Origin: Moorena producens
GTDB taxonomy: Bacteria > Cyanobacteriota > Cyanobacteriia > Cyanobacteriales > Coleofasciculaceae
DNA: 64,000 bases
Direction: 5' to 3' (one strand)
Assembly: GCF_965240435.1 (NCBI RefSeq)
Contig: NZ_CBDEKO010000003.1
Shown here: positions 1,670 through 44,397 of the stretch, piece after piece
Layout of the letters: every line of letters begins with the position of its first letter
Position numbering within the stretch: position 1 is the stretch's first letter
Translations under genes and position numbers: made by a program
The notes under the pieces: generated by a model
Database searches by the model: none
The model's input: only the letters and a program-made list of their open reading frames with translations
Told to the model about the DNA's origin: nothing

Positions 1670-1686
1670 GGGAGCATTTTGCTCCC
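1670..1686 (+). terminator. candidate intrinsic terminator hairpin after small ORF
   Basis: GGGAGC/GCTCCC 6-bp stem, followed by T-rich tract (gtattttt). Confidence 0.3.
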
Positions 1687-6799: not shown

Positions 6800-6997
6800 A
6801 TGGTATCTATCCTATTATACTTTTTTAAGTGTATTTGTCAGCTTATCATGCTGGTATTCCGTTTACTCTCCTGATTTGAGAAGATTAAAAAAGTGTTAAT
6901 AATAAGTTACATTCTAAGACGGTGCCTTGGCCAAAAGGCCACGCTACGCGAACTTTAAAAGGTGATGGAAACAAACGGAATAACAAGCTTTCCAGCT

Positions 6998-7150
6998 TCA
7001 ACCTGCTAACCTGCTAACTGGCTAACCTGCTAACTGGCTAACCTGCTAACTGGCTAACCTTGGCCAAAAAGCCACGGGTGCGCGTTCAACCTGCCAACTT
7101 TCAACCTGCTAACCTGCTAACCTGCTAACCTGCTAACCTGCTAACCTCCA
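6998..7150. repeat. octamer tandem arrays (CCTGCTAA / CTGGCTAA) interrupted by a palindromic GGCCAAAAAGCC element
   Basis: Direct reading; array supplies the stop codon (TAG) of the adjacent minus-strand ldcA-like gene. Confidence 0.9.
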
Positions 7151-12146: not shown

Positions 12147-15100
12147 CTAGGGATCTCCAACCAGAGTGAAAGCAGCCCAATAGTAGGGATGAGAAAAGCT
12201 TTGTTTTCCTGGTCCTGACAATTCTGGCGGTAACGAGATGTTCTTGCCCGAGCCATATAACTGATTATTCTCGATACGGACATTGCCTTGAATCATCGCT
12301 AACTGTGCCTGTCGCAAGGCTTCACTTTTACTCGATGTCTTTTTCAACTGACGGTAAAACTCAGTAGTCAGCCCCAGAGCACCTTGATCACTGACATACC
12401 AAAGGGTTGCCAAAGTCGAGTCAACTCCTGCCTGAAAGGCTGACCCAGCAAAACCCAACTCTGCTTCTCGATTGCCCAAAGCAGTTCGGCAAGCACTCAG
12501 TACCAATAACTCTACCGATGGCTCATAAAGCAAATTTTCCATTTCATACAGCCTTAGTTTGTGGTTCCACATCTGAATGTAGGAATCGTTAGGAGTTCCT
12601 GGGTTGAACTCTGCATGGGTGGCTAGGTGAATGATCCCATATTGCTGCTGTTCTCGTTGAGCCCTTAAATTGTCCATAGTAAAGGCTTCGTTGAGAAAAG
12701 AGCGACCTTTCCACAGTTTTTCAGTGATGGTGGTTAACTCCACTTCTACCCCAGGCAAAGGCTGTTGATAAGGAAATTTCGATGCTCCCATTGCCAGAAC
12801 CCGGAAGGGTCTGACATCTGTGTGACGAGAATAGGTTAAGCTCAGACTAGGCACCAAGTTAACACCATATTTCTCAACCAGATATTGTTGCCCATCGTAG
12901 ATAGCTGCTATAGGTAGGGAGCGCAAACCCTCATCCATAGCAAATATTAGGCTCTGAATCTTGCGGTTATTTAATTCCTTCTCCAAGGGCGCTATGATCC
13001 ATCGATAAAGTTGCTCAGCTGGGTAATGGTGGTCTTTGGCATCCAAGCTGTCGGCATTGCTAAGCGATCGCTGAAATCTATTGGTCACAGCTAGGACTTG
13101 ATCACGACTGGCACCATTGATTCGCCGCACAATTGGATTACCTTCAGCTGTGATCACCAACAGTTCCAGCTGGTCATTTGGTTGTGGTAAGCAACGCTCT
13201 GGTGCTTGAGGAACCTCAGAGAGTCGGTAACCAAACCGTCGGTCGATTTTGGAAACAGGGATTGAGGGAGCTTGACATCGAGTGCCTGGTAATGTACTGG
13301 AATTTTCGACAAAACTGACGTAAATCACGGCAGTCTTTAGCCCTGTCTCCCTCTCAAGCTCCCGAGTCCGATTGCGGACATCATTCTGAGTGTTGATTTT
13401 GGCCTTAAACGGTCGCTGAAAGTGTGACTCATATTCTTTGGTGAAGGCTTCTTCAATTAAATAAACTGGGTCACTTTCAGGTGAAACTTCTTCAGTTGTG
13501 GAATTTGATTGAGATGAAGCAGTAGGGGTTCCAGGTTCTGAAGTACCAGGGTCTGAACTACTAGGGTCTGAACTACCAGGGTCTGAACTACCAGGGTCTG
13601 AACTACCAGGGTCTGAACTAGAGGGCTCTTGCGTGTCACTTATAGTCTTGTCAGAGGGGGAAACGGCAGGCTGGTCACCATTGTTTCTACCGTTGGGCTT
13701 ACTTGTGTCAGGGCCAGGCTCTATCGGTTCTATCGGTTCTATCGGTTCTATCGGTTCTATCGGTTCTATCGGTTCTATCGGTTCTATCGGTTCTATCGGT
13801 TCTATCGGTTCTATCGGTTCTATCGGTTCTATTGGTTCTATCGGTTCTATCGGTTCTATCGGTTCTATCGGTTCTATTGGTTCTATTGGTTCTATTGGGT
13901 TAGGATTCGTCTCAGATTCGGGAAAACGGCTAAAAATCAAATCACCTATACCCCCTCCACCGAAAGCCCGCAAATCTCCCTGGATTTGATCTCTTATTTG
14001 TTGTTCCTGCTCTGGGCTGCTCTCTTGCTGACTAACAAACTCTATATCACCGGCATTACCAGTTAGATTACCACCATCACGTTGACTCCCAGCTCCTGTG
14101 TTGATCTGCAACTTAAACTTATCAAAGTCGATATTATCTAAATTTGGAACCTGAAACGTTACTTTTCCAGCATTTCCAGGAACTTCTACCTGGGTGTTGA
14201 TTCTTATCTCGACTGTTTGTCCCCCTGTCGTAATACTGCCCTCTTTGGTTTCCAAAAATACATTACCAGAATTACTCCCATTGGTTTCTGTGGTTCTTAT
14301 TTGGGTAAACGTGAAACCACTATTGCCAAAAATAATGTCACCTTTAGCAGATAAGATTACAGGACCAGCATTATTATTTTGAATTCCAGGAGCATTATTA
14401 TTACGACCATTACCAGGATTACTGGTGTTTATATTCCCAATGGTGATACTCCCTTCGGATGAAGCATTTCCAGAATTGTCGGTAACTTGATTGCTCAATT
14501 CATCCTTATTCAAACCCGCCCTTAAAATCACGGCACGAGTCTTTATTAAGGTTTGATTCTCTAATTTGTTTAAAGTATCACTATCTAATTCGTTACGCTT
14601 TGAAGTGGAAACTAACTCTAATAAATTTTCTCGCTGAGTATCTGTTAACTCTGAGTCTAAATCTGCTAGCCCAGTATCTGGTACAGTGATTGTGATATTC
14701 CCAGCTTCAATATTTCCTGTGGACTCTACTTTAAGAGAAGACCCTGTGTAATCCCCAAACGTAACATCCCCAACAGCGGTGATAATTGGGTCTTGGAGGC
14801 TAACAAAGTTATTTGGTTCACCAGCTAAATTCTCAATTGAGAAATTACCGCCACTGGCAAAGTGAGCATCTGTAGAGATCCTGCCATCGCTGACCAAGCT
14901 CAGGTCGCCACCACTCTGGAAGCGGGTGTTGGGATTCTTCAGTGCTAGGATATCAATGCCCGGATCCTGCTTAATGCCCTGATCCTGGTTCACGCCCCCA
15001 TCCCCCTGAATCTTGAGGTTTCCTCCTGCTACCGCTTGGAAGGAATTATCTGCTGTGTCCCTAATCCGCACCGTCTCCTTAGCCAATAGGGTTAAGTCCC

Positions 15101-16217
15101 CCGTGCTAGATAGCTGGCTTTCGCTCAAATTGAGGTTATTGTTAGCAGACAGGGTAATGTTATCGCTAGATATCTCACTTGCACTCAGAGTCAAGTCATT
15201 GTTGGCAGACAGGGTGGTGTTCTTACTAGATAGCTGGCTTTCCGTCAGAGTCAGGTTATTGTTGGCAGAAACAGTCAAGTTATTATTAGCAGACAGGATT
15301 GCTCTTTGTGCTGTTAGGTCCTTAACAGTTACATCCCCAGGCGCTATAGTGATGCCAGAACTAGTCAAGGTCACGGTTTTATTATCACCATTATCCGTGA
15401 ATTCTGTGGCATGACTGACACCATCCCCGGTTAATAGCTTCGGTAAAGAGAGCGGTGTAAAAGATTGTTCTGCTGTGGAAGCATCTGAGGGTAGGGGTTC
15501 AACTTCCAAATTCAGCAAACTTCCTGGCTGGCTAATTTTTACCAAACGTTCCCCAGGCACAGCAGCTATAGTAATTGTTGCGTCTGGAAGCTCCAGTTGA
15601 TTGGTGTTGATGACAGTACCACCGATTAAACTGAGGTTATTGCCTGCTGCGACTTCTAGCTTACCCTCATTAAAAATTAGTCCCGGTGTCTCGGATGTAT
15701 CAAACGCAAAGGCACTGGGTGTACCGACTAAGGTAGAGTAGTCATTGGCACTAAAGGCATTAAACCAATTGTCATCACCAAAGCCAATCCTAGTCGCCGT
15801 AGTTGCGGTGAATGAAGCGGGGACATCCAGCTGGCTATTAGCACCAAAAATTATCCCGGCTGGGTTCATTAAAAACAGGTTAGAGTTGCCCTGTGTTACT
15901 TTTATTAGACCGTTGATCACAGAAGCATTACGACCGGTGACCCGACTCAGAATGTTTTGTATACCCGGTTGAGATAGGAAGTTAGCAATTTGGTCTTGGT
16001 CTAGACCAAATTCCTCAAAGCTGTGAAAGATATTATCTCCAGAGCGAATGCCACCATCAATGTCAAATTGATTGCCATCGGAGGTGACTTGGGTCGGAGT
16101 GCTATCATCGGCTTTAATCTGTGCTTGAGTTGGCATGACACCAATATGGGCTACCAACAAAGATACGGCTGCCAGGGACTGGCTGATTTGACTCACAGCT
16201 AATTTGATTTGGCTCAT
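12147..16217 (-). CDS. giant secreted protein: TPS (filamentous-hemagglutinin N-terminal) secretion domain + repetitive beta-rich middle + (PIE)n and (SSDPG)n linkers + C-terminal CHAT protease domain
   Basis: N-term signal + ...NIFHSFEEF...NLFLMNPAGIIFG... (TPS domain); C-term ...HLATHAEF...LVLSACRTALG...HPYYWAAFTLVG (CHAT His/Cys dyad). ORF track 12147..16262; start placed at MSQIKLAV (16217). Confidence 0.85.
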   Translation of the reverse strand: MSQIKLAVSQISQSLAAVSLLVAHIGVMPTQAQIKADDSTPTQVTSDGNQFDIDGGIRSGDNIFHSFEEFGLDQDQIANFLSQPGIQNILSRVTGRNASVINGLIKVTQGNSNLFLMNPAGIIFGANSQLDVPASFTATTATRIGFGDDNWFNAFSANDYSTLVGTPSAFAFDTSETPGLIFNEGKLEVAAGNNLSLIGGTVINTNQLELPDATITIAAVPGERLVKISQPGSLLNLEVEPLPSDASTAEQSFTPLSLPKLLTGDGVSHATEFTDNGDNKTVTLTSSGITIAPGDVTVKDLTAQRAILSANNNLTVSANNNLTLTESQLSSKNTTLSANNDLTLSASEISSDNITLSANNNLNLSESQLSSTGDLTLLAKETVRIRDTADNSFQAVAGGNLKIQGDGGVNQDQGIKQDPGIDILALKNPNTRFQSGGDLSLVSDGRISTDAHFASGGNFSIENLAGEPNNFVSLQDPIITAVGDVTFGDYTGSSLKVESTGNIEAGNITITVPDTGLADLDSELTDTQRENLLELVSTSKRNELDSDTLNKLENQTLIKTRAVILRAGLNKDELSNQVTDNSGNASSEGSITIGNINTSNPGNGRNNNAPGIQNNNAGPVILSAKGDIIFGNSGFTFTQIRTTETNGSNSGNVFLETKEGSITTGGQTVEIRINTQVEVPGNAGKVTFQVPNLDNIDFDKFKLQINTGAGSQRDGGNLTGNAGDIEFVSQQESSPEQEQQIRDQIQGDLRAFGGGGIGDLIFSRFPESETNPNPIEPIEPIEPIEPIEPIEPIEPIEPIEPIEPIEPIEPIEPIEPIEPIEPIEPIEPIEPIEPGPDTSKPNGRNNGDQPAVSPSDKTISDTQEPSSSDPGSSDPGSSDPGSSDPSSSDPGTSEPGTPTASSQSNSTTEEVSPESDPVYLIEEAFTKEYESHFQRPFKAKINTQNDVRNRTRELERETGLKTAVIYVSFVENSSTLPGTRCQAPSIPVSKIDRRFGYRLSEVPQAPERCLPQPNDQLELLVITAEGNPIVRRINGASRDQVLAVTNRFQRSLSNADSLDAKDHHYPAEQLYRWIIAPLEKELNNRKIQSLIFAMDEGLRSLPIAAIYDGQQYLVEKYGVNLVPSLSLTYSRHTDVRPFRVLAMGASKFPYQQPLPGVEVELTTITEKLWKGRSFLNEAFTMDNLRAQREQQQYGIIHLATHAEFNPGTPNDSYIQMWNHKLRLYEMENLLYEPSVELLVLSACRTALGNREAELGFAGSAFQAGVDSTLATLWYVSDQGALGLTTEFYRQLKKTSSKSEALRQAQLAMIQGNVRIENNQLYGSGKNISLPPELSGPGKQSFSHPYYWAAFTLVGDP
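13457..13640. repeat. 15-nt tandem repeat (CTGAACTACCAGGGT) x~5 inside CDS, encodes (SSDPG)n
   Basis: Direct reading of sequence and of translated SSDPGSSDPGSSDPG. Confidence 0.9.
13719..13897. repeat. nonamer tandem repeat GGTTCTATC x~20 inside CDS, encodes (PIE)n on minus strand
   Basis: Near-perfect copies with a few C>T variants; all three plus-strand frames and antisense frames produce spurious ORFs (13629..14066, 13633..13989, 13703..13903). Confidence 0.95.
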
Positions 16218-16897
16218 GGGTAATATCGTTTTTAATCGGCTATCCTGAATTCCAAAATGCATTAGTCAACTACAGGATGAGATTAGCAATTTCCTAATAC
16301 GTCTGTTTTTAAGCTGAGGTCAGATGCACCCTGGGGTATCAGCTGCTTAGGAGTGAATGACACTGAATTACACTGAATTACACTGAATCACAATACTGAG
16401 GGGAATAGTACTCTGAGTCAGGGTTTGGTAAACATCAGGCTGGTTGGCTTAACTGAAATCTTGAAGCCTTTATGAAGATCTAAGTATATACACTAGTATT
16501 ATATATACTCTTTGATTATGAAGATTACTGATTAACTTTGTTCCGGTTAATTTATATTAACTTCACTAAATCTTTTTGATATTGCAAAATAGTTTGAAGC
16601 TCTCTATGGTAAGCTAATCAGATTAATTTTTAATTACCAGGCAATTGAAGTAAAAGTCAGTAAAATCATCGATTATCAAGAACTCTAGAGATTTTGGACA
16701 GTTCTCGCGAGAGTGAACTATACTTGAGAGTTAGCGCTGGATTAGGCTAAAGGATATCTAAAAGGATATCTCAGTGGAAACAGCGATACTGCAGACACCC
16801 AAAGTTAAAATGGTAAAGGTCAGCACTCCCCTGTTGCTTTGATTCTTGATTAGATGGGGAGATCTCCCTTACGGACAAGATCGCTGACCAGTCTAAG

Positions 16898-22181: not shown

Positions 22182-23108
22182 ATGAAGATTCAGGGAAAAA
22201 CGGCTCTGGTTACCGGAGCCTCACGTGGTATTGGCAGAGCGATCGCTCTGGAATTAGCCCAGCAAGGAATAAGACGCTTACTGTTGGTGGCGCGAAATCG
22301 CCAACGTTTAGCAGAAGTGGCGGCTGAGATTGAACGACAAGGGGTACTAGTTGTGACGCTCGTCTTAGATCTCACCCAAATAGTAGGAGTCAATATTGCA
22401 ATCGCACGAGCTTGGCGAAGTTACGGACCAATTGATTTGTTGGTTAACTGTGCTGGCGTTGCTCATCAAGCTCCTTTTCTAGAATCCAAACTGCAAAACT
22501 TACAGGAAGAAATCGCCACGAATTTGATCGGTATGTACACGATGACTCGTCTAATTGGGCGACGCATGGCAGCACGACGAGAAGGCACTATTGTCAATGT
22601 TTCTAGTTTGATGGGTAAGGTGGCAGCCCCGACGATGGCAAGCTATTCCGCTACCAAATTTGGGATTGTTGGTTTTACTCAAGCGTTACGGGGAGAGTTA
22701 GCGCGAGAAAATATCCGGGTAATCGCTTTACTGCCATCGTTAACAGATACTGATATGGCGCGAGGATTACACTTGTTTCGCTGGGTCTTGCCGATGACTC
22801 CCCAACAAGTCGCTAAGGTACTAGTCGCCAAACTGGAGAAGAACTCATCGGAAATTTTAGTGGGATGGCAAAGTCATTTAGCTATATGGTGTCAGCGTTT
22901 CTTTCCTTCGCTATTGGAGAAAGTGTTACGGATTGTAGCTCCTTTATCTAGAAGTAAAAGTTTTGGAGAAATAGCAAACAGGCAACAGGCAACAAGCAAC
23001 AGGAAAGGATTTTGGAGAATAGTTTTAGATTTTGGCTTCTTTAGGTCTAATATACAAACGTTTGATAAAGGGTTTGATCAAGGTTTGAAAGACAAGTTTC
23101 CTGATTAA
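22182..23108 (+). CDS. short-chain dehydrogenase/reductase (SDR) family oxidoreductase
   Basis: TALVTGASRGIGRAIA (TGxxxGxG), ...NCAG..., catalytic YSATK. Confidence 0.85.
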   Translation: MKIQGKTALVTGASRGIGRAIALELAQQGIRRLLLVARNRQRLAEVAAEIERQGVLVVTLVLDLTQIVGVNIAIARAWRSYGPIDLLVNCAGVAHQAPFLESKLQNLQEEIATNLIGMYTMTRLIGRRMAARREGTIVNVSSLMGKVAAPTMASYSATKFGIVGFTQALRGELARENIRVIALLPSLTDTDMARGLHLFRWVLPMTPQQVAKVLVAKLEKNSSEILVGWQSHLAIWCQRFFPSLLEKVLRIVAPLSRSKSFGEIANRQQATSNRKGFWRIVLDFGFFRSNIQTFDKGFDQGLKDKFPD

Positions 23109-23737
23109 TCTTTCCGATTTGAACAGGACTTAGACAGCCTACAGATAGATTGGCTGCCTAAGTCTTGTGTAAGCTGATAGCTGACGGCACCTCAAGTAGC
23201 ACCTCAAGTAGCGCATATGCTTACTGTTATTTATGTTGGGTTAGAGTGCTGCGATTTGAGTTGATATAAACCGAAATTTTGTCAAGTCTTTGTATAAAAA
23301 ATTTATCTAACCACAATAAAATATGTGAACAAGTTTTTGCGATTGTTATAGCGGAGTTGACAGTCAAGCAACTGTCAATTATCAACAAAAATACTAGTGA
23401 TATCGGATCAAGTTTACTACTTATGGTATTGGTTAACTATATATAAATAGAAAACAATTATATATAGATGTAGAGTTAAGAATTTGTAAATAAATGTAAC
23501 TTTAATAAAAAAGTGCAAATTTGTAATGATATGATTTAACCTGTCTTTCAAAAGAAAGACAGTTGTTATAAATGATGAATGATAAAAATTGGATTCTGTA
23601 TTTTTAGGATACTCTACTTATACTCAATTTGATTTTTTCCGTGAAGGGAAACTCGGTCAGCTGTTATGCATTTAAACGGTGATAACAGCATCAGCTGTGT
23701 TTTTAAGGGGTGCATCTCCTAAAATCTGTTTGACCCA

Positions 23738-24229
23738 GTGGATGGAACGGGCAAGATGCCCATTCCACAAATTGTAACGGGCAAGATGCCCATTCCACAA
23801 ATTGTAACGGGCAAGATGCCTATTCCACAGATTGGAACGGGCAAGATGCCTATTCCACAGATTGGAACCAGCAAGATGCCCATTCCACAAATTGTAACGG
23901 GCAAGATGCCCATTCCACAAATTGTAACGGGCAAGATGCCCATTCCACAAATTGTAACGGGCAAGATGCCCATTCCACAGATTGGAACGGGCAAGATGCC
24001 TATTCCACAGATTGGAACGGGCAAGATGCCTATTCCACAGATTGGAACCAGCAAGATGCCTATTCCACAGATTGGAACCAGCAAGATGCCTATTCCACAG
24101 ATTGGAACCAGCAAGATGCCTATTTCACAGATTGGAACCAGCAAGATGCCTATTTCACAGATTGGAACGGGCAAGATGCCCATTCCACAGATTGTAACGG
24201 GCAAGATGCCCATTCCACAAAACTATTAA
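23738..24229. repeat. 30-bp tandem repeat (ACGGGCAAGATGCCCATTCCACAAATTGTA) x~16, immediately upstream of amidinotransferase gene
   Basis: Direct reading; unit contains small hairpin GGGCA-aga-TGCCC. Period divisible by 3 so all six frames are open (ORF-track ORFs 23672..23950, 23719..24213, 23738..24229, 23982..24197 are artefacts). No spacers, so not CRISPR. Confidence 0.95.
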
Positions 24230-24293
24230 AATCATCCCGCATTTAGGCAACGCCCAAAATTTAGCTAGTACGTTATAGATAAGGAGATCAGAA

Positions 24294-25439
24294 ATGTCCG
24301 AAAAAATTGTTAATTCCTGGAATGAATGGGATGAATTGGAAGAAATGGTGGTAGGAATTGCAGACTACGCTAGCTTTGAACCAAAAGAACCAGGGAATCA
24401 TCCGAAATTAAGAGATCAGAATTTAGCGGAAATCATTCCTTTCCCCAGTGGACCTAAAGACCCTAAAGTCCTTGAAAAAGCTAATGAAGAATTAAATGGA
24501 CTGGCTTATTTATTAAAAGACCACGATGTGATAGTAAGAAGACCAGAAAAATTTGATTTTACCAAATCCATAAAAACCCCTTACTTTGAAGTTGCTAATC
24601 AATACTGTGGAGTCTGTCCTCGGGATGTCATGATTACCTTTGGTAATGAAATTATGGAAGCAACTATGTCGAAGAGAGCTAGATTTTTTGAATACTTACC
24701 TTACCGGAAATTAGTTTATGAATATTGGAATAAAGACGACCATATGATTTGGAATGCTGCGCCTAAACCGACTATGCAGGATAGTATGTATCTAGAGACT
24801 TTCTGGGAGCTGTCTTTAGAAGAACGATTTAAGCGTATGCATGATTTTGAATTTTGTATTACACAAGATGAAGTAATTTTTGATGCGGCTGACTGTAGCA
24901 GATTAGGAAAGGATATATTAGTTCAGGAATCGATGACAACAAATAGAACAGGAATTCGGTGGTTAAAAAAGCACCTAGAACCAAGAGGATTTCGGGTTCA
25001 CCCTGTTCATTTTCCCCTTGATTTTTTCCCCTCCCACATTGACTGTACGTTTGTTCCTTTGCGACCAGGTCTTATTTTGACAAACCCTGAAAGACCTATA
25101 CGGGAAGAGGAGGAGAAGATTTTTAAAGACAATGGCTGGGAGTTGATCACAGTTCCTCAACCGACTTGCTCGAATGATGAAATGCCAATGTTTTGCCAGT
25201 CCAGTAAGTGGTTGTCAATGAATGTTCTGAGTATATCACCGACAAAGGTTATCTGTGAGGAAAGAGAAAAACCTCTCCAAGAATTGTTGGATAAACATGG
25301 ATTTGAGGTTTTTCCTTTACCCTTTAGACATGTCTTTGAATTTGGGGGGTCTTTTCATTGTGCAACTTGGGATATTCGCCGAAAAGGTGAGTGTGAAGAT
25401 TATTTTCCCAATTTAAATTATCAACCGATTTGTGGTTAA
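24294..25439 (+). CDS. amidinotransferase, glycine amidinotransferase (AGAT)-like
   Basis: 381 aa; closely parallels vertebrate AGAT along its length from memory: SWNEWDELEEMVVG (vs SYNEWDPLEEVIVG), ...ARFFEY..., ...SSKWLSMNVL..., C-terminal GGSFHCATWDIRRKG retaining the catalytic Cys of the FHC motif. Confidence 0.85.
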   Translation: MSEKIVNSWNEWDELEEMVVGIADYASFEPKEPGNHPKLRDQNLAEIIPFPSGPKDPKVLEKANEELNGLAYLLKDHDVIVRRPEKFDFTKSIKTPYFEVANQYCGVCPRDVMITFGNEIMEATMSKRARFFEYLPYRKLVYEYWNKDDHMIWNAAPKPTMQDSMYLETFWELSLEERFKRMHDFEFCITQDEVIFDAADCSRLGKDILVQESMTTNRTGIRWLKKHLEPRGFRVHPVHFPLDFFPSHIDCTFVPLRPGLILTNPERPIREEEEKIFKDNGWELITVPQPTCSNDEMPMFCQSSKWLSMNVLSISPTKVICEEREKPLQELLDKHGFEVFPLPFRHVFEFGGSFHCATWDIRRKGECEDYFPNLNYQPICG

Positions 25440-25487
25440 AAACTAACAATAGTAATTACAAGTTAAGAGGGTCAATAGGTCAAGACT

Positions 25488-26186
25488 ATGAATTTTGAAA
25501 GCGGTTATCAAGGGTTAAAATCAAGCGCGGATCCCCAACGATGGTCTGCTCAAAAAGAATTGCTAACGGATGAAAAATTGGTGATCGAAGGACATCCGGT
25601 TATGGAACGTTGGGAAACCCCTTATATGGGGGCTTTTGCGGCGTTAGTCACTCGCCATGGTGGTCGGATCTTAGAATGTGGCTTTGGCTTGGGAATATCG
25701 GCTCATGCTATTCAGTCTTATGCTCCAGAAGAACATGTGATTATAGAAGCCAATGACGATGTTTTTAAACGATTGATTGAGTTCCAAAACAGTGCAGTTA
25801 ATCAAGTAACCCCTATCTTGGGCTTAGCATGTGATGTCTTAGAATCATTTAATGATCAATCATTTGATGGTATTTTCTATGATACTTATCCTTTGAATGC
25901 AGATGAACAACACACCCACCAATTTCCATTTATCAAAAAGGTTTATCCCCTGCTTAAGAAGGGTGGAATTTTAAGCTATTGTAATTTGACGTCAACAGGA
26001 GTTCTCAAGAATAGATACGATTCCTGGGAAGCTCTTTTCAATGAAACTCAAGTTCCTTATCTTATTGAAGCAGGTGTTCCAGAAAACGATATTAAAGGTA
26101 TCATTATCTTTAAAGTTTCTCCACCTACCGATTGTTTATACTTTCAACACAAGACAGCTATGATTCCCATTATTGTCAAAGAGTAA
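25488..26186 (+). CDS. guanidinoacetate N-methyltransferase (GAMT)-like SAM-dependent methyltransferase
   Basis: 232 aa; HPVMERWETPYMGAFAA (vs KPVMERWETPYMHALAA in GAMT), ILECGFGLGI SAM-binding loop, DGIFYDTYPLNADEQHTHQFPFIK (vs [24 protein letters not shown]), ...YCNLTS..., ...ETQVPYLIEAG... Confidence 0.85.
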   Translation: MNFESGYQGLKSSADPQRWSAQKELLTDEKLVIEGHPVMERWETPYMGAFAALVTRHGGRILECGFGLGISAHAIQSYAPEEHVIIEANDDVFKRLIEFQNSAVNQVTPILGLACDVLESFNDQSFDGIFYDTYPLNADEQHTHQFPFIKKVYPLLKKGGILSYCNLTSTGVLKNRYDSWEALFNETQVPYLIEAGVPENDIKGIIIFKVSPPTDCLYFQHKTAMIPIIVKE

Positions 26187-26255
26187 GTGTAAGCATTCAG
26201 CAGTCAGCCGTCAGCCGTCAGCTAATTTGATTCAAAAGCACCTCAAGTAGCGTGG

Positions 26256-26274
26256 CACAGGCTTCTAGCCTGTG
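26256..26274. terminator. hairpin CACAGGCttctaGCCTGTG between convergent GAMT-like and acs genes (candidate bidirectional terminator)
   Basis: 7-bp perfect stem; similar hairpin CACAGGCttccaGCCTGTG at ~34835-34855. Confidence 0.3.
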
Positions 26275-26328
26275 AGGTAACCCATAAGCTGATGGCTGAT
26301 AGCTGACTATTTACGTTAAGCGTGCTTT

Positions 26329-28299
26329 TCAAGCCCCTTCCCGTAACTTATCCAAAACACTGCGGTCTTCTAGAGTGGAGGTATCTCCAGCAACCTCTTG
26401 ACCTGCAGCTAGCGATCGCAATAGCCGACGCATAATTTTACCGGAACGAGTCTTGGGCAAAGCATCAGTAAAGCGAATGTCACCAGGACGTGCGATCGCA
26501 CCAATTTCTTTGACTACGTGCTGCTTTAGTTCTTGCTTGAGTTCGTCACTAGCGCTATAACTGCCTTCTAAGGTCACAAAGGCAAAGACATCTTCCCCTT
26601 TTACCTCATCAGGTTTACCGACTACAGCGGCTTCAGCTACAGAAGGATGAGAAACCAGTGCTGACTCCACTTCCATGGTTCCTAAGCGGTGACCAGAGAT
26701 ATTCAACACATCATCCACACGACCCATAACCCAGAAATAACCATTGGGGTCTTTTCTGGCACCATCTCCAGCAAAATAGAAGTATTGGCCATCTTTTGGC
26801 TGAATGTGTTCCCAATAGGTGCGGCGGAAACGGTCATCATCCCCATAGACAGTACGGATCATACTTGGCCAAGGATGTTTGATAACTAAATAACCACCAT
26901 CATTCTCCCCAACTGGATTGCCGTCTAAATCTACAATATCAGCAATAATGCCTGGGAAGGGGAAAGTAGCCGAACCGGGTTTAGTAGGAGTAGCACCAGG
27001 TAAGGGGGTGAGCATGAAGCCACCGGTTTCAGTTTGCCACCACGTATCGACAATGGGACAACGTTCTCCCCCAATCACCCGATGGTACCACATCCAGGCT
27101 TCTGGGTTAATCGGTTCACCCACAGTTCCTAAGATACGTAGGGACGATAAATCACGGGCGTTGGGATGCTGGTCTCCCATCTTAATAAAGGCACGAATAG
27201 CAGTGGGAGCAGTGTAGAAGATAGTGACTCCATATTTTTCTACCACATCCCACAAGCAACCGGGATTGGAAGGACGGGGAGCCCCTTCGTACATCAGGCT
27301 AGTAGCACCATTGGACAATGGACCATAGACAATGTAACTGTGTCCCGTAATCCAGCCGACATCAGCAGTACACCAGTAGACATCGGTCTCTTTGAGGTCA
27401 AAGGTCCACTTGGTAGTCATGTGGGTGTAGAGGTTATAGCCACCAGTAGTGTGAACGACCCCTTTCGGTTTACCGGTGGTACCGCTAGTGTAGAGAATGA
27501 AGAGCATATCTTCACTATCCATGGGTTCCGCTGGACAATCAGCAGATGCTCCCGGTTGCAAGTCATGCCACCAGTGGTCTCGTTCTGGTTCCATGTCAAT
27601 CCCTTGCTTGGTGCGTTCTACCACTAGGACGTTTTCTACTGTAGGTGCGCCATTATTCTCTAGGGCTTTATCAACTTGAATCTTGAGAGGAACAATCTTG
27701 TCTTTGCGCCAGCCCCCATCAGCAGTAATTACTAATTTAGCTTGAGCATCTACCAGTCGGTCTTTGAGGGCTTCTGCACTAAAGCCACCAAAAACAACGG
27801 TGTGGGGAGCACCAATTCTAGCACAGGCTAGCATGGCAATAGCAGCTTCGGGAATCATGGGCATATAAATGCCAACGCGATCGCCTTTTTTCACTCCCAG
27901 TTGTTTGATCACATTTGCCATCTGGCAAACTTCCCGGTGTAACTGGGCATAGGTTAGGGTGCGGGAGTCTCCCGGTTCCCCTTCCCAAATCAGGGCAGCT
28001 TTATTCCGACGCCAGGTAGTCAGGTGTCTGTCAAGACAGTTGTAAGAAATATTAATCTTGCCACCAACAAACCATTTGGCAAAGGGGGGTTGCCAATCTA
28101 ATACGGTATGCCACTTTTGAAACCAGTCAAGTTCTTGTTCGGCAAGCTGAGCCCAAAACCCTTCGGGGTCAGCTTTGGCTTGTTCATAAAGTTGCTGATA
28201 CTCCGCCATGCTCTTAATCTGGGCATTCTCGGCAAAGTCAGCCGGTGGCGGGAACAGCCGTTCTTCTTGAAGGATTGATTCTATAGTTGGTTGTGACAT
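26329..28299 (-). CDS. acs: acetyl-coenzyme A synthetase
   Basis: 656 aa; ...[12 protein letters not shown]... AMP-binding motif, ...WWQTETGG..., C-terminal ...RSGKIMRR... Confidence 0.95.
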
Positions 28300-28464: not shown

Positions 28465-29937
28465 ATGCCTATGAAAGTAGGAGCAACTAAAAAAATATCG
28501 ACTCAAATCGTCCTTGTCATCGGTATGACAAAGGTGGTTGAGACAGAGTTGCTGTCTACAATGAAAAAGTTGGGCATTGTCAGATCTGAGTCTTACAACA
28601 AACTGGGAAGCATCAACTACTGGAACCTTGACTGGAAAAAAGCTATTCCAGAAGTAAAAAGTTTTAGAACTCCAGATACTCTGGGATTACCTGCAAAATT
28701 AATGGACTGGACCGTTAATGACGTAGGTAAGGCTATTACAGCCCAACAAGCAGCTTGTAAAGATGCGGTTATTAAAAAGATTTACAAAAGATTTCCAGGA
28801 AAAGAAAATAAAAACAAACGGAAGGAATATGTCACGCAACTTAAGACTTCGGCATTCCTGGAGAATTCTTTACTGCACAGACTTGTTAGAAAAGAATTTC
28901 AAAAAGGTCATTCTTGGGTTAAGAATCAGATAGTTTACCAGCAAGTTGGCTACAAGTGTAAAAGACTTTCGCGGAACACTTGGCAACTGGAACTAGCTGG
29001 ATTAACAAAGGGAAAAAGGAATAAAATAATTGTCAAATCTAATCGAAAAATCAAAGGACAGATTAGATTAATCTATGATCAAATATTGCAAAGATTTGAA
29101 ATTCACTTTTTGGTAGACCATGGTACCGTAGAAGTTCCATCTGAACGTCGAAGTATCGGGGTGGACAAAGGTTACACCGAAGCTTTTTATGACTCAGAGG
29201 GTCAGGCTTACGGTACAGGACTTGGAAAAATAATCACCAAAAAATCCGATCGTATATGTGCTAAAAACCGCAATAGAGGAAAACTGTGGGCACTTCACAG
29301 AAAGCTAGAAAAGTTAGATCCAGCAAAGTCGGCTAGAATACTAAAAAATAACCTAAGTAGGAAAACCGAAAATCGCCGTTACAGACAAAATCAATCAGAA
29401 CTAACCGCAAAAATAGGAGCGGCTTCTAAATCTCTCTTTAACGGGGAGTCATTAAAAGTATTTGCAGAAGATTTAACTCAACCGATACGAAACAAACGCC
29501 GATCCAAGACCGTGTCCCGCAAACTTAATAGTTGGATGAAAGGAGTGATGCGGGACTCTTTGCAGAAATGGGCTAATTGGACTGGTTCGGTTGTCACAGA
29601 AGTTCAACCTAGTTACACGTCGCAAATTGACTCTAGAACCGGAACCCTGTTGGGTAAAAGGACTGGGGACAATTTTACCGGATTTGATGGGGTCGTGTTG
29701 CAGGCTGATTATAATGCTGCCAAAAATATTCTTGCTCGTGGGACTGATCACGAAATTACTCGGTACATGAACAAGAACGAGGTACAGGCAGTCTTGTTGC
29801 GTCGTACCGCGCGTTACTTGGAAGGGATGGGACTAAGTTTGGTTGATGGGGTTGAGCTAGGTTGGATTGATCCCAAACATAGCAAAACTAAGGCTTTCAA
29901 GCAACTCCTGGTCGAGATGCCAGGAGCGCCCAAATAG
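28465..29937 (+). CDS. tnpB: TnpB-like (IS200/IS605-family OrfB) RuvC-fold nuclease; solitary, no tnpA; zinc-finger apparently absent
   Basis: RuvC-I ...IGVDKGYT..., RuvC-II ...VFAEDLTQ..., RuvC-III ...QADYNAAKNI...; no CxxC pairs between RuvC-II and RuvC-III; N-terminal start uncertain (several in-frame Met). Confidence 0.65.
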   Translation: MPMKVGATKKISTQIVLVIGMTKVVETELLSTMKKLGIVRSESYNKLGSINYWNLDWKKAIPEVKSFRTPDTLGLPAKLMDWTVNDVGKAITAQQAACKDAVIKKIYKRFPGKENKNKRKEYVTQLKTSAFLENSLLHRLVRKEFQKGHSWVKNQIVYQQVGYKCKRLSRNTWQLELAGLTKGKRNKIIVKSNRKIKGQIRLIYDQILQRFEIHFLVDHGTVEVPSERRSIGVDKGYTEAFYDSEGQAYGTGLGKIITKKSDRICAKNRNRGKLWALHRKLEKLDPAKSARILKNNLSRKTENRRYRQNQSELTAKIGAASKSLFNGESLKVFAEDLTQPIRNKRRSKTVSRKLNSWMKGVMRDSLQKWANWTGSVVTEVQPSYTSQIDSRTGTLLGKRTGDNFTGFDGVVLQADYNAAKNILARGTDHEITRYMNKNEVQAVLLRRTARYLEGMGLSLVDGVELGWIDPKHSKTKAFKQLLVEMPGAPK

Positions 29938-34229: not shown

Positions 34230-34560
34230 GCGGTGCTTAATAATGAAATGATTTTAATGCTGAGGTGGAATGGGCATCTTGCCTGTTCCAGCGGTGCTTA
34301 ATAATGGAATAATTTTAATGCTGAGGTGGAATAGGCATCTTGCCTGTTCCAGCGGTGCTTAATAATGGAATAATTTTAATGCTGAGGTGGAATGGGCATC
34401 TTGCCTGTTCCTGGCATGGCTTAATCATGGATTTTAATGCTGAGGTGGAATAGGCATCTTGCCTGTTCCTGGCATGGCTTAATCATGGATTTTAATGCTG
34501 AGGTGGAATGGGCATCTTGGTGGAACAGGCATCTTGCCTGTTACAATCTTCGCGCGGGCA
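34230..34560. repeat. ~61-bp tandem repeat x~5 (TGAGGTGGAATGGGCATCTTGCCTGTTCC...TTTTAATGC)
   Basis: Direct reading; contains the GGCAAGATGCCC hairpin motif in reverse orientation relative to the 23738-24229 array. Confidence 0.9.
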
Positions 34561-38238: not shown

Positions 38239-40914
38239 ATGATTGGAATTGTGATTATCTCCCACAGTGCTAAGCTAGCCGCTGGGGTCAAAGAATTAGC
38301 CCAACAGATGGTTCAGACATCAATACCAATTGCGATCGCAGCGGGTATTGATGACCCAGAAAATCCCTTTGGTACGGATGTGCTGCAAGTCCAAGCTGCC
38401 ATTGAGTCGGTTTACTCCGATGCTGGGGTAGTGGTATTAATGGATTTAGGCAGTGCCGTGCTCAGTGCGGAAATGGCACTGGAGTTTCTGGATGAAGAGC
38501 AGAAACCCAATGTAAGATTGTGCGAAGCGCCATTAGTGGAAGGTGCGATCGCAGCCGTTGTCCAAGCTGCGGCTGGTGGTGATATCGACCAAGTGATTGC
38601 TGAAGCTAGATCAGCTTTAACCGCTAAAGCCTCTCAGTTATCAGTTGTTGATAGTAATGATAGTACTGATAGTACTGAGTTTGACCCGGTGGGTGGAACG
38701 GGCATCTTGCCCGTGGGTGGAACGGGCATCTTGCCCGTGGGTGGAACGGGCATCTTGCCCGTGGGTGGGACTGGCTGTTCCAACCCTGGCTACGAAGGGG
38801 AAAATGAGGGTGAGCCCGTCCCTAACGCACCACTAGCAACTACAACCAAAGAAATCCATCTTACTGTCGATAATCTACAGGGAATTCATGCTCGTCCTGC
38901 TGCCCAATTTGTTACTAAAGCTAATCGGTTTAACTGTGAAATTACGTTACAAAATATCACCAAAACTAGCAATATAGTTAATGGAAAAAGCATTAATAAT
39001 GTGATGCTTTTAGGTATCCAACAGGGAGATGAAATAGTCATCAAAGCAGTGGGAGAAGATGCCGAATTAGCGTTGATAGCGTTGCAGCAGCTAGTCGATA
39101 ACAATTTTGGCGAAACAGTAAATAAAGCAAAAGAAGACATCAACCAAAATTATAACCCTTCCAGTAACCAATCCCTTCACCCGTCATCCGTCACACTTGA
39201 TAGGTTAATTGGAATTCCTGCTTCTGCTGGTATTGCTATGGGAGCGGTTATTGTCTACCAACCCAAACGTCCAGAGATTATTGAAGAGCAAACAGATAAT
39301 CCTCAAGGAGAGTGGGAAACCCTACAACTTGCTATTAAAACAGCACAACAGCAACTTGAACACCTGATCAATACTGTTACTAACGATCAGGCAGATATTT
39401 TTCAGGCTCACTTGCTCTACTTAGAAGATCCAGCCCTAGTTAATAGAGCTTATCAGATTATAGTTGACCAGCATCTATGGGCAGGGGCGGCTTGGAAAAC
39501 TGTGATCGATGAAACGGTAGCAAATTACCAAACTCTGGAAGACTCCTACATGCAAGCTCGGGGAAATGATGTGATCGATGTCGGCTGGCGAGTGTTGCGA
39601 TTACTGACGAATAGGAAAGAAACCTGTCTAGATGTGACTGAGCCTGGTATTCTGGTTGCTGCTGATTTAACTCCCTCTGAGGTCGCGCAACTCAATCCGA
39701 TCCAAGTCCTAGGTATCTGTTGCGCTAGTGGCAGTGCTACAGCCCATAGTGCCCTGATCGCGAATATGCTCGGTATACCGATGATGGTTGGTGTTGGTCA
39801 GGATCTGTTGTCGTTGCCAGCTGGTACGGAGTTGGCACTGGATGGGACAACCGGTCAAATTTGGGTAGAGCCTTCTGAGGAACGGAAGCAAGAATTACAG
39901 CTACAGAGCAACAGTAAGGATGAATTACCTACAGAGGTAATTACTCAAGATGGACACAAAATTCCCTTGATGGCAAATGTTTTGGGAGAGGCTGATGCTA
40001 AATTGGCTCTCGATTGTGGTGCTCAAGGGATAGGTTTACTTAGGACTGAGTTTCTTTATCTGGAACGCTTAACTATTCCGATGGAAGAAGAGCAGTTGGC
40101 AACCTATCAAGCCATTGCGGAAATTATGGGTACCCATCCCTTAACGATTCGTACTTTAGATATTGGCGGTGACAAGCCCATTCCCTTCCTGAATCTAGCC
40201 TCTTCTGATGCTCCCTCTGATCGGCACACCCCAGAGCCTAACCCTTTCCTAGGATGGCGGGGAATTCGTCAGAGTTTGGATTGTCCAGAGATGCTCAAAA
40301 TCCAACTGCGGGCGATTCTACGAGGGAGTTATGGACACAACATTAAAGTGATGTTTCCTATGGTTTCTTCAGTACAAGAGGTACGGGCTGCTAAGGAAAT
40401 CCTAGCAGAGGCTCAAGCCGAGTTGCGCCAAGAAGGGTATAGTTTTAATGAACAGATGCCAGTGGGGATTATGGTAGAAGTCCCGGCAGCAGTAACCATG
40501 GCTGATCAGTTAGCGGCTGAAGTGGACTTTTTCAGCATTGGTACCAATGATTTGAGTCAATATGTGATGGCCGCTGACCGTACTAATCCCAAGGTGGCGA
40601 AGCTAGCTGATGCCCTTGAACCGGCTGTGCTACGGATGATTCAGCAAACGGTAACTGTTGCTCATCAAGCAGGGATTCCGGTTAGTGTGTGTGGTCAGTT
40701 GGCATCAAATCCAGTAGGGATACCGATTTTATTAGGGTTGGGTGTGGATGAGTTGAGTGTGAATCCACCTGCGATCGCTACTGTAATTTCAGTTATTACA
40801 CAGTTGAGTATCAACCAGGCCGAGATGCTTGCTGGTGAGGTGTTGCAGCTAGATTCGGCTCTTGCGGTTAGAGAGTATAGCGCTACGCGCAAGGCAATAG
40901 GCAATAGGCAATAG
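38239..40914 (+). CDS. dhaM: multidomain PTS-type phosphotransfer protein: EIIA(Man)-like DhaM domain + HPr domain + full Enzyme I (PEP-utilising) domain
   Basis: N-term MIGIVIISHSAKLAAG...VRLCEAPLVEGAIAAV (DhaM/EIIA-Man); HPr ...IHARPAAQFV...; EI ...GSATAHSALIANMLGIPMMVGV...LRTEFLYL...FFSIGTNDLSQY...CGQLASNP. Linker has in-frame repeat (VGGTGILP)x3-4 encoded by GGCAAGATGCCC-type repeat. Ends ...IGNRQ* inside AATAGGC array. ORF-track TTG start 38218; ATG at 38239 used. Confidence 0.85.
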   Translation: MIGIVIISHSAKLAAGVKELAQQMVQTSIPIAIAAGIDDPENPFGTDVLQVQAAIESVYSDAGVVVLMDLGSAVLSAEMALEFLDEEQKPNVRLCEAPLVEGAIAAVVQAAAGGDIDQVIAEARSALTAKASQLSVVDSNDSTDSTEFDPVGGTGILPVGGTGILPVGGTGILPVGGTGCSNPGYEGENEGEPVPNAPLATTTKEIHLTVDNLQGIHARPAAQFVTKANRFNCEITLQNITKTSNIVNGKSINNVMLLGIQQGDEIVIKAVGEDAELALIALQQLVDNNFGETVNKAKEDINQNYNPSSNQSLHPSSVTLDRLIGIPASAGIAMGAVIVYQPKRPEIIEEQTDNPQGEWETLQLAIKTAQQQLEHLINTVTNDQADIFQAHLLYLEDPALVNRAYQIIVDQHLWAGAAWKTVIDETVANYQTLEDSYMQARGNDVIDVGWRVLRLLTNRKETCLDVTEPGILVAADLTPSEVAQLNPIQVLGICCASGSATAHSALIANMLGIPMMVGVGQDLLSLPAGTELALDGTTGQIWVEPSEERKQELQLQSNSKDELPTEVITQDGHKIPLMANVLGEADAKLALDCGAQGIGLLRTEFLYLERLTIPMEEEQLATYQAIAEIMGTHPLTIRTLDIGGDKPIPFLNLASSDAPSDRHTPEPNPFLGWRGIRQSLDCPEMLKIQLRAILRGSYGHNIKVMFPMVSSVQEVRAAKEILAEAQAELRQEGYSFNEQMPVGIMVEVPAAVTMADQLAAEVDFFSIGTNDLSQYVMAADRTNPKVAKLADALEPAVLRMIQQTVTVAHQAGIPVSVCGQLASNPVGIPILLGLGVDELSVNPPAIATVISVITQLSINQAEMLAGEVLQLDSALAVREYSATRKAIGNRQ

Positions 40915-42426: not shown

Positions 42427-42590
42427 CTAAGCTATCAGCTATCAGCTATCAGCTATCAGTTATCAGCTATCAGTTATCAGCTATCAGTTATCAGCTATCA
42501 GCTATCAGCTATCAGCTATCAGCTATCAGCTATCAGCTATCAGCTATCAGCTATCAGCTATCAGCTATCAGCTATCAGCATACGGCGGTT
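42426..42590. repeat. CTATCAG heptamer array x~22 followed by CTGTTCG/CTGTTCC heptamers (42610-42680)
   Basis: Direct reading. Confidence 0.95.
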
Positions 42591-42744: not shown

Positions 42745-44397
42745 TCAAGTCACCAATAAAACTTCAATAAAGCGATTCCAGGTCATAGCTCGTCCATTGA
42801 TGCGACGATATAAAAAATTCACTTCCTTTACACTAAGGTGTGATTCACCTACACTGGCAAAAGCTAAATTCATTTCATCGATACTGATAACATCATCCTG
42901 GTTAGCATCAATTGGTATAAAATAAGTCATGAAGTCGTGATAGTTAGACATCAATCGTTGCTGACGCAATAACAATTCACCAAACTCAGCCAGATCAATT
43001 TCACCACTGCCATCAATATCCAGACAACGAAACAAATAATCCAATTCCTGTTGAGAGATACCTCGTTTGACTTGCCGCAGGTGTTCTGCGAGCTCGTTAA
43101 CCGAAAGGGTGTTACTGAAATCGGTATCAATGGCATTAAAGAGATATTCGATATTTCTTTTGGTTGAGGTGGAGGCAGACTCAAATAAATATAGGTGGGG
43201 TGTACCTGCAATTGCCTCTTGCATCTGACGGCGAAAGGTGGTAAGGATATCTTTGGCAACCAGGTAACGGTGGTAATGTTCTTCTGGGCTAGCGATCGCA
43301 TGTAGGGGAACCGGGACTAATGACGGCAGTGTCTGCTGCAAAAAGCGGAAACCTCCGATTGTGACCAAACAGAAGGGTAAGGTCAGGATGGGCAAGTTAA
43401 CTAGGGTGAAGATGTGGCTTAAAATGCCCCCCAGGATAGTTGAAAAAAAAGCCATAAAAATACCAGCAAGCAGGCTGCGCAGGTTGGGGGCAAAAAATAC
43501 TCCAGAGATGGCCATTGCTGTCAAGATGGCGTTGTAACTGCACAATCCAGCCGAGATGGTGTCAGGACGGAAACCTGTGATCACCGCTGCCAGGGTACCG
43601 GATATTCCCCCCAATAATCCCACAGCTGCCCCAATCGGTGTACACCAGGCAACTGCGGCCAAGACCAGCACCCCAGCCACAAACTTGTCCATTAAAAACA
43701 CCTGCCCAAACCCAATCGGCACCGAGGTGGCAAATTGCGACCAATTGATCGGTTCCAACATAGGTGGGGGAGTGGGCGTGGGCCCCAAGCTATAAACTGC
43801 TTGAGGCATCGAGAGGGCAATCACCAGAAATAACAGCGTTGCCGCAATAAAGGGCAAGGTTAGGGGGGGAAATTTCAGCTTGCTGGCAAACCAGACTCCG
43901 ACGGTCTTGATCAACAGGGTGGTAAGAGTAGAAAAGATGATAGCCCCCATGAGCCAGAGGGGATTCCAGTTACCATTCCCGGATGCCCCAAAGGTAGCAA
44001 GTGCTGCTCCGACTAAAATCCCGTTATAGCCAAAAATACCGTTGCGAAGACTATCGCGATTAAGATTAAGCAAGATGGCAGTTACGGTTGAAGCCACCAG
44101 ACCCACTACACTCATCACCCCTACCCAAGGTGACTGAATAAACAGTGCTATCAGAATCAATAAGCCACTGAGGGGGTTGTTGACAAAGATCACCTGGCCA
44201 ATGCCACGCAAGTTGTAATTCAAAAAATCCCACAGAGGTTGATCGCCTAAGCGTTGATTGAGAGATGGCAATGTGCCTGCACCAGGTAGCAACCAGGGAA
44301 ATAGCTTAGTCCTATGGGGTTTGAAAAGTACTAGGTTGGCAATTAGTTCATGGAGCGGTGAGGGTTCAGGGGTAGCCGGGGGCATAGAAGATTTCAT
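42745..44397 (-). CDS. urea transporter (UT family) membrane domain fused to a C-terminal EF-hand calcium-binding domain
   Basis: UT signatures ...GIGQVIFVNNPLSGLLILIALFIQSPW... and ...LRNGIFGYNGILVGAALA...; C-terminal ~150 aa with EF-hand loops DTDFSNTLSVNEL, DIDGSGEIDLAEF, DANQDDVISIDEM. Confidence 0.8.
   Translation of the reverse strand: MKSSMPPATPEPSPLHELIANLVLFKPHRTKLFPWLLPGAGTLPSLNQRLGDQPLWDFLNYNLRGIGQVIFVNNPLSGLLILIALFIQSPWVGVMSVVGLVASTVTAILLNLNRDSLRNGIFGYNGILVGAALATFGASGNGNWNPLWLMGAIIFSTLTTLLIKTVGVWFASKLKFPPLTLPFIAATLLFLVIALSMPQAVYSLGPTPTPPPMLEPINWSQFATSVPIGFGQVFLMDKFVAGVLVLAAVAWCTPIGAAVGLLGGISGTLAAVITGFRPDTISAGLCSYNAILTAMAISGVFFAPNLRSLLAGIFMAFFSTILGGILSHIFTLVNLPILTLPFCLVTIGGFRFLQQTLPSLVPVPLHAIASPEEHYHRYLVAKDILTTFRRQMQEAIAGTPHLYLFESASTSTKRNIEYLFNAIDTDFSNTLSVNELAEHLRQVKRGISQQELDYLFRCLDIDGSGEIDLAEFGELLLRQQRLMSNYHDFMTYFIPIDANQDDVISIDEMNLAFASVGESHLSVKEVNFLYRRINGRAMTWNRFIEVLLVT

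Follow-up and report, generated by a model that had tools for sequence, protein, structure and literature searches.

Creatine is usually regarded as an animal metabolite, made in vertebrates by arginine:glycine amidinotransferase (AGAT, GATM) and guanidinoacetate N-methyltransferase (GAMT). Among bacterial relatives of the first enzyme, CyrA and AoaA of the cylindrospermopsin pathway were biochemically characterised as L-arginine:glycine amidinotransferases (PMC3684758), and CyrA passes its guanidinoacetate to the adjacent CyrB, a nonribosomal peptide synthetase/polyketide synthase (NRPS/PKS). Among relatives of the second, BlsL of the blasticidin S pathway is a guanidino N-methyltransferase dependent on S-adenosylmethionine (SAM), about 33% identical to GAMT, which acts on a large peptidyl-nucleoside substrate and is encoded in an antibiotic cluster (PMC5572114). 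Here we analyse a 64-kb stretch of Moorena producens DNA (the window; coordinates count from its first letter) in which two adjacent open reading frames (ORFs), ORF1 and ORF2, belong to the same two families as the vertebrate enzymes. Judging from sequence comparison, we consider it probable that they form a self-contained, likely co-transcribed two-gene module for creatine synthesis. The pair consists of the following elements:

24281-24286, plus strand: Shine-Dalgarno-like AAGGAG, read from the sequence, 7 nt before the ORF1 ATG
24294-25439, plus strand: ORF1, 381 amino acids, ATG start, predicted CyrA-type L-arginine:glycine amidinotransferase
25440-25487, plus strand: intergenic spacer of 48 bp; a purine-rich stretch at 25465-25471, AAGAGGG, is a weak ribosome-binding site
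25488-26186, plus strand: ORF2, 232 amino acids, ATG start, predicted GAMT

The original prediction had described two co-directional ORFs 48 bp apart, each with its own ribosome-binding site and resembling AGAT and GAMT, respectively. The arrangement is as described, the peptide motifs quoted for both proteins were all found in the translations, and the best solved-structure match of each ORF is an AGAT or a GAMT over its full length. The ribosome-binding site is convincing for ORF1, while ORF2 has only a weaker purine-rich stretch (AAGAGGG 16 nt upstream, or AGG 8 nt upstream). Since no terminator-like sites were found between ORF1 and ORF2, their co-transcription is likely. The pair thus shares with the vertebrate pathway its two enzyme families, the reaction order, about 50% identity over the full length and the key residues. 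It differs in that the Moorena genes are adjacent and probably co-transcribed, that ORF1 lacks the mitochondrial presequence of vertebrate AGAT, and that neither a creatine kinase nor a creatine transporter is visible in its context.

ORF1 best matches human AGAT in the PDB (1jdw, E 2e-78, residues 6-371 on 66-422 of the precursor), with lesser matches to SxtG (2e-67), HsvA (8e-60) and StrB1 (5e-56). A database entry called 'glycine amidinotransferase [Moorena producens]' has the same sequence (100% identity); a CyrA-like amidinotransferase of Aphanizomenon shares 75% identity with ORF1, and many Streptomyces proteins annotated as 'glycine amidinotransferases' reach about 70%. The catalytic residues Asp254, His303 and Cys407 of the human enzyme (PMC3684758) are kept as D197, H248 and C356. 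At human positions 300 and 302, vertebrates have Asn and Met whereas CyrA has Phe245 and Ser247, two residues tied to its narrow Arg/Gly specificity (PMC3684758). ORF1 has the latter type, and its Asp197, Phe245, Ser247, His248 and Cys356 carry the same numbering as in CyrA/AoaA; F245/S247 were also found in all nine type-A relatives examined. Moreover, D111, D250, R267 and S304 of ORF1 align with human D170, D305, R322 and S355, which we take to be the substrate contacts of the Humm 1997 structure. ORF1 is therefore assigned, on sequence grounds, as a full-length CyrA-type L-arginine:glycine amidinotransferase (EC 2.1.4.1), with the same predicted product, guanidinoacetate, as CyrA/AoaA.

The solved structures matched by ORF2 are GAMT chains only (2e-56 to 2e-53, residues 27-231 on 29-234), led by human GAMT 3orh (E 2e-56) and rat GAMT 1xcj (E 2e-55). 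From end to end, ORF2 shares about 50% identity with animal GAMT. D132, within a YDTYP motif, corresponds to the catalytic base Asp134 of the rat enzyme (PMC12842229, PMC12471008) and is invariant in 41 aligned sequences. E43, T133 and the C165-N-L-T-S169 loop correspond to rat E45, T135 and C168-S172. For the rat enzyme, Komoto 2004 reportedly described a pairing of Glu45 with the guanidino group, the carboxylate of the substrate being held by the Cys168-Ser172 loop through the amides of Leu170 and Thr171. E43, D132, T133 and the CNLTS loop are invariant across the cyanobacterial, protist and animal GAMTs of the alignment, as is W19 of the N-terminal segment; the sole departure is a protein of Thioploca CSMAG_551 (39% identity), which has C-E-V-N-D instead of CNLTS. 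The SAM-binding motif I (ExGxGxG) is present as E63-C-G-F-G-L-G69 and likewise does not vary between cyanobacteria and vertebrates. The domain PF27704 (GuanidinoAc_N-MeTrfase) is recorded, as a precomputed match, on all of the 120 relatives listed, among them P0001 at 97% identity. As the substrate residues of GAMT are retained, ORF2 is best assigned by sequence as a true GAMT orthologue (EC 2.1.1.2) and not as a generic class-I methyltransferase. It differs from BlsL in its higher identity to GAMT (about 50%), in its retained guanidinoacetate pocket and in being paired only with an amidinotransferase.

Together, the two enzymes would act as follows. ORF1 would shift the amidino group of arginine, via C356, onto glycine, giving ornithine and guanidinoacetate. 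ORF2 would then hold guanidinoacetate between E43, D132 and the C165-S169 loop and methylate its glycine-derived nitrogen from SAM, releasing creatine and S-adenosylhomocysteine.

Moorena producens shares the pairing with other cyanobacteria, Thioploca and bacteria known from metagenomes. A genome scan that took one genome per bacterial species yielded 13 loci (here and below, fetched loci are numbered with the prefix L). ORF2 relatives were found in Moorena sp., M. bouillonii, two Lyngbya metagenome-assembled genomes (MAGs), cyanobacterium J06592_8, Scytonema (two copies), Okeania (a fragment) and 'Cyanobacteria bacterium SBLK', as well as in three Thioploca MAGs (the third a partial match) and, as a weak and short match, in a Desulfobacterales MAG. 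When the ORFs of the window and of these 13 loci were clustered, the sole recurrent neighbour of GAMT was an amidinotransferase, and the remaining flanking genes vary between genera. Over all loci fetched, GAMT and amidinotransferase genes are linked in the window and in 17 other loci from Moorena, Lyngbya, Scytonema, Thioploca and metagenome bacteria (those named as linked are L001, L003-L011, L014-L016, L102-L104, L106 and L116). Five of these linked pairs came from a metagenome scan, whose contigs were mostly short. More distant relatives (55% identity) on bacterial contigs again have an AGAT-type gene 21-23 bp upstream of GAMT. Given this recurrence, creatine is probably made by some bacteria themselves.

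The extent of the unit is best seen in uncultured Lyngbya DNA, which is 85% identical to the window across 24292-26186 only, in otherwise unrelated surroundings. The shared block opens just ahead of the ORF1 ATG, closes with the ORF2 stop codon and includes the 48-bp spacer; since the similarity is confined to it, the pair appears to be a discrete two-gene module. One locus without an amidinotransferase gene was L017, an 8-kb contig. Two further arrangements were observed. On the 2.1-kb contig Ga0256411_1019209 (L104, 46-1858), the gene order is reversed relative to the window: GAMT (48% identity) comes first, and AGAT (52% identity) lies 44 bp further along the same strand. In Thioploca CSMAG_551 (L010, 9397-12908), a gene for an FAD-linked oxidase separates the gene of the divergent GAMT-like protein (39%) from that of a divergent amidinotransferase, and genes for a MoaF-like protein and a P-type ATPase lie upstream. 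The locus may represent a related pathway with a different guanidino substrate.

Not all GAMTs are paired with a CyrA-type enzyme. In Scytonema, one Lyngbya, Okeania, J06592_8 and Thioploca HyVt-590, GAMTs 69-87% identical to ORF2 are partnered by a StrB1-like amidinotransferase, which is 35% identical to ORF1, best matches inosamine-phosphate amidinotransferase (1bwd, E 8e-117) and carries an L-G-K-H signature in place of the F-P-S-H of the CyrA type. The GAMT gene has the same orientation as in the window and usually follows 35-40 bp after the amidinotransferase gene; the pairs differ from ours in that the first enzyme stems from another amidinotransferase lineage. The StrB1-type amidinotransferase genes lie at:

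L004, 8770-9954
L005, 8840-9955
L006, 8546-9661
L007, 5347-6438
L009, 6227-7273
L102, 2703-3788
L103, 1377-2402

Within the tight cyanobacterial GAMT clade (100% bootstrap), the CyrA-type partner is found in Moorena and one Lyngbya. We read the StrB1-like enzyme as a probable non-orthologous replacement of the first enzyme that would also supply guanidinoacetate, because the active site of its partner GAMT is unchanged.

Several observations weigh against a creatine module. First, the sister cyanobacterial GAMTs, 82-87% identical to ORF2, are the ones paired with the StrB1-like enzyme: either this enzyme supplies guanidinoacetate as well, or the methyl acceptor of the whole GAMT clade is less certain than the ORF2 active site implies. 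This putative swap is the main reason why we rate the creatine module as probable and no higher. Second, M. bouillonii lacks AGAT but keeps an intact GAMT gene, which moreover evolves with unchanged dN/dS (the ratio of nonsynonymous to synonymous divergence) despite the loss. Third, no specific profile was matched when Pfam and NCBIfam were scanned: ORF1 gave a sub-threshold ADI match in Pfam and ORF2 weak generic methyltransferase matches, and neither gave anything in NCBIfam. The Pfam copy scanned predates PF27704 and the NCBIfam copy holds no specific AGAT or GAMT models, so that these results reflect missing models rather than missing homology. Still, the family assignments have to be carried by PDB matches, residues and the precomputed PF27704 matches of relatives. 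Fourth, a simple scan found no promoter-like site on the plus strand 5' of ORF1, and the Moorena locus holds no transporter, regulator or kinase gene that would indicate a role. Finally, the accessible literature contains no enzyme assay or metabolite measurement for any bacterial pair. On the other side stand orthology, active-site conservation, conserved gene pairing and the lack of a downstream assembly line, all of which were computed, and from which we infer both enzyme activities, co-transcription and the fate of the product.

The first two of these points would also suit a creatine analogue as product, formed if ORF2 methylated another guanidino compound, if the acceptor of ORF1 were not glycine, or both. 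GAMT-like enzymes with other substrates do exist, as BlsL demonstrates (PMC5572114), close ORF2 relatives have a StrB1-like amidinotransferase as partner, and the M. bouillonii GAMT persists without AGAT. However, at about 50% identity to animal GAMT, ORF2 has every known guanidinoacetate-contact residue unchanged; what a substrate switch may look like is exemplified by the Thioploca CSMAG_551 protein, whose CNLTS loop is altered, unlike that of ORF2. In addition, ORF1 has the F245/S247 of CyrA that are linked to strict Arg/Gly use. We therefore judge an analogue to be an unlikely product, and creatine the probable one.

What becomes of guanidinoacetate in this amidinotransferase family can be judged from relatives of ORF1 that have no GAMT. 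Four were examined, three at 73-76% identity (L098-L100) and one from Streptomyces at 70% (L101), all sharing the F-P-S-H active-site signature:

L098, 6001-13173: ORF1 relative directly upstream of a CyrB-like AMP-binding/PCP/KS megasynthase
L099, 6001-13173: ORF1 relative before a gene for a protein of 2948 amino acids with no domain match on record
L100, 3014-10183: ORF1 relative directly upstream of a CyrB-like AMP-binding/PCP/KS megasynthase
L101 (Streptomyces), 1279-7146: ORF1 relative accompanied by genes for a pseudouridine synthase (TruD), a ligase of the ATP-grasp type and an MFS pump

L098 and L100 come from a Caldilineaceae MAG and a metagenome contig, and the neighbourhood of L101 looks like a pseudouridimycin cluster. 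By analogy, then, the CyrA-type family would make guanidinoacetate, and the adjacent gene would decide its fate. As the adjacent consumer of the ORF1 product is GAMT, where that of CyrA is CyrB, creatine is indicated as the product here.

These relatives also bring up the idea that the Moorena pair supplies guanidinoacetate or creatine as the precursor of a larger secondary metabolite, for instance a polyketide or peptide with a guanidino primer, with the assembly genes elsewhere in the genome. The same family feeds PKS lines and a pseudouridimycin-like pathway in close relatives, and Moorena is known as a prolific producer of natural products. Yet in those relatives the consumer is directly adjacent, whereas no PKS, NRPS or ligase gene adjoins the pair here or in the GAMT loci scanned; neither PKS nor NRPS was detected in the scanned neighbours of L002-L010. 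In the window, no PKS/NRPS domains occur in any ORF of at least 200 amino acids, in agreement with the original prediction that no such gene is adjacent. Nor was an amidinotransferase gene found there beside a CyrB-like NRPS/PKS or an SxtA-type PKS, so the pair is not embedded in a cylindrospermopsin- or saxitoxin-type cluster within these 64 kb. Furthermore, the two genes pass from one genome to another as a unit, and we know of no natural product primed with N-methylguanidinoacetate. A precursor role thus appears distinctly improbable.

The creatine made by the pair would most likely stay a free small metabolite, such as a nitrogen-rich compatible solute or an exported compound, and would not serve as a natural-product building block. 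Genes around the pair in other loci offer some guidance. EamA exporters lie beside it in L004, L006 (two) and L008 (one, between the two genes), L006 encodes two MscS-type mechanosensitive channels, L004 has an MFS transporter, and AraC-type regulators occur in L006 and, by ORF clustering only, in L005. Because EamA, MscS and MFS genes flank the pair in these loci, a free, releasable solute is weakly favoured.

Creatine is a phosphagen in animals, and in very large filamentous cells it could in principle feed a bacterial phosphocreatine energy buffer. The circumstantial argument for this is that the module hosts (Moorena, Lyngbya, Okeania, Scytonema and Thioploca) are large filamentous marine bacteria. 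No phosphagen kinase gene (ATP:guanidino phosphotransferase) was found among the window ORFs or the scanned neighbours of L002-L010, though, and the neighbours that recur, namely exporters and mechanosensitive channels, suggest a solute that is released. We therefore give very little credence to an energy buffer in comparison with a free solute. The named host genera comprise marine or benthic filamentous bacteria. It is possible, although we hold it to be doubtful, that creatine is a genuine bacterial metabolite on a wider scale: a mobile amidinotransferase-GAMT module in large marine filamentous bacteria (the five genera above) would then produce a released, nitrogen-rich solute, constitute an unrecognised source of the creatine found in marine metabolomes and have been exchanged with protists. 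If so, creatine synthesis would be neither an animal invention nor bound to the phosphagen role.

The history of the module was examined through tree topology, divergence and composition. A bootstrapped neighbour-joining tree joins the cyanobacterial GAMTs, ORF2 included, first to other bacterial GAMTs (77%) and next to those of alveolates and euglenozoans (92%). Animal GAMTs stand apart as a clade of their own (100%), and the SBLK protein has a separate branch. GAMT transfers between bacteria and protists, in one direction or the other, are likely. The original prediction had noted that both genes look AT-richer than their neighbours and had taken this as compatible with horizontal acquisition. 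The first part stands in a modest form: the G+C content at third codon positions (GC3) is 0.320 for ORF1 and 0.310 for ORF2, the two lowest values in the window, against a mean of 0.397 (standard deviation 0.050, 33 window ORFs), or about 1.5-1.7 standard deviations below it, with three other genes within 0.02. The second part fares poorly, as a z of only about -1.6 and a synonymous codon choice that is the most typical in the window led us to reject composition as strong evidence of horizontal transfer. The patchy distribution of the pair and DNA similarity limited to the module argue better for it.

Within Moorena, the synonymous divergence of the pair (0.06-0.10) equals that of the flanking acs and short-chain dehydrogenase/reductase (SDR) genes, so that acquisition, if any, predates the divergence of these strains. 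Both genes are under purifying selection, with dN/dS of 0.065 for AGAT and 0.18-0.23 for GAMT. In M. bouillonii PNG, a 3.3-kb cassette (L002, 6677-9958) cleanly takes the place of the spacer, the tandem repeat and the AGAT gene (23163-25445 of the window); it consists of two opposite-strand genes, encoding a HopA1-effector-family protein and an APH/choline-kinase-like phosphotransferase. Relaxed selection on the remaining GAMT gene was considered and not seen, dN/dS being 0.18 in both comparisons.

Both enzymes belong to well-known families: public databases already name ORF1 'glycine amidinotransferase', and ORF2 relatives are named 'guanidinoacetate N-methyltransferase'. The full-text literature, with subscription journals outside coverage, yielded no account of creatine synthesis by AGAT and GAMT in bacteria, cyanobacteria included, and the occurrence in bacteria of the canonical pathway as a mobile two-gene module is apparently undescribed. 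The nearest paper is a 2025 engineering study that expressed two bacterial GAMTs in E. coli, described as 'previously unreported' and taken from Winogradskyella and Streptomyces; the accessible text gives neither pathway context nor activity figures for those two (PMC12093341). A 2025 review of guanidine metabolism still presents animals as a source of guanidine derivatives for microbes (PMC12623156). Marine phages carry 'GAMT' auxiliary metabolic genes with the same KEGG function and the same conserved motifs matched (PMC11360552). These phage proteins reach only 26-44% identity, and an amidinotransferase-like sequence was found in just one of 80 viral GAMT loci, about 7.5 kb away. A link between the module and these viral genes was accordingly rejected, the latter being distant and unpaired.

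A conserved bacterial operon for the standard creatine route would add a new class of producers. Creatine per unit carbon is higher in marine community metabolomes than in any phytoplankton culture tested (PMC8269262), and when isotopes were traced in seawater, the labelling of creatine was not accounted for by the standard route (PMC9321204). The pair would also offer compact, prokaryote-ready genes for creatine biomanufacture, for which current work uses a mouse GAMT (PMC12093341). It further raises the question of what creatine does in cells with no obvious creatine kinase.

The surroundings of the pair in the window are as follows:

22182-23108: SDR gene upstream of the pair, ORF confirmed
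23109-23742: AT-rich non-coding spacer of 634 bp between the SDR gene and the tandem repeat
23541-23562 and 23685-23698, plus strand: terminator-like hairpins in the spacer, predicted to stop transcription from the SDR gene
23743-24219: tandem repeat, 30 bp in 15.9 copies, 95% match (Tandem Repeats Finder)
26187-26328: ORF2-acs spacer of 142 bp with inverted heptamer-type repeats and a long hairpin
26329-28299: acs (acetyl-CoA synthetase) gene downstream, convergent to the pair

Spacer, repeat of about 16 copies, upstream SDR gene and convergent acs gene had all been predicted and proved real. SDR and acs are conserved as neighbours within Moorena only, and a functional link of the pair to them was rejected on these grounds. 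The ORF2-acs spacer folds as RNA at -56.1 kcal/mol (z = -5.4 against 200 shuffles), and its hairpin is likely a bidirectional transcription stop. The 1.2-kb region upstream of the pair matched no riboswitch or other Rfam family, either at the gathering threshold or at E up to 1.

The tandem repeat ends 74 bp 5' of ORF1, and its copy number varies among Moorena strains, from 15.9 here to about 8.6-10 in Moorena sp. SIO3I8, where it lies at the equivalent position (L001, 8408-8713). Its core, GGCAAGATGCCCATTCCAC, recurs at 34264-34538 and 38692-38759, one copy set being inside the ORF of a PTS fusion protein; it is a repeat dispersed through the Moorena genome and not particular to the AGAT-GAMT pair. 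Two other motifs bracket the block, GCACCTCAAGTAGC at 23187, 23199 and 26238, and GCTGATAGCTGAC at 23173 and 26295, within stretches at 23173-23212 and 26238-26307, and a further occurrence lies at 1369-1382 on the minus strand. Insertion scars of a mobile element were considered and rejected, since both repeat families recur elsewhere in the window; the motifs probably belong to genome-wide families of short tandem repeats. An array of about 20 copies of the heptamer GCTGATA at 42434-42579 is among the other window sites of these families.

The other neighbours in the window, as identified by scanning every ORF of at least 200 amino acids, are housekeeping genes or unrelated to the pair: ffh, phoH, pyrH, frr and acs, together with genes for a TPS/CHAT protein, a TnpB-like protein, GrpB, an ECF sigma factor and the PTS fusion protein, and a polysaccharide cluster. 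The TnpB/Cas12f-like ORF (490 amino acids, 28465-29937, plus strand), located between acs and the GrpB gene, encodes a Cas12f1-like TNB domain. Two other Moorena genomes lack it at the syntenic locus, which makes it a strain-specific insertion. The TPS/CHAT protein (1371 amino acids, 12147-16262, minus strand) combines an N-terminal two-partner secretion (TPS) domain with a C-terminal CHAT protease-like domain. Lastly, an arginase-family ureohydrolase gene (44559-45578, minus strand) adjoins a urea transporter gene (42745-44397, minus strand) whose product is fused to C-terminal EF-hand calcium-binding domains. These two genes may form a catabolic unit that releases urea from a guanidino compound; their distance from the AGAT-GAMT pair is 18 kb.

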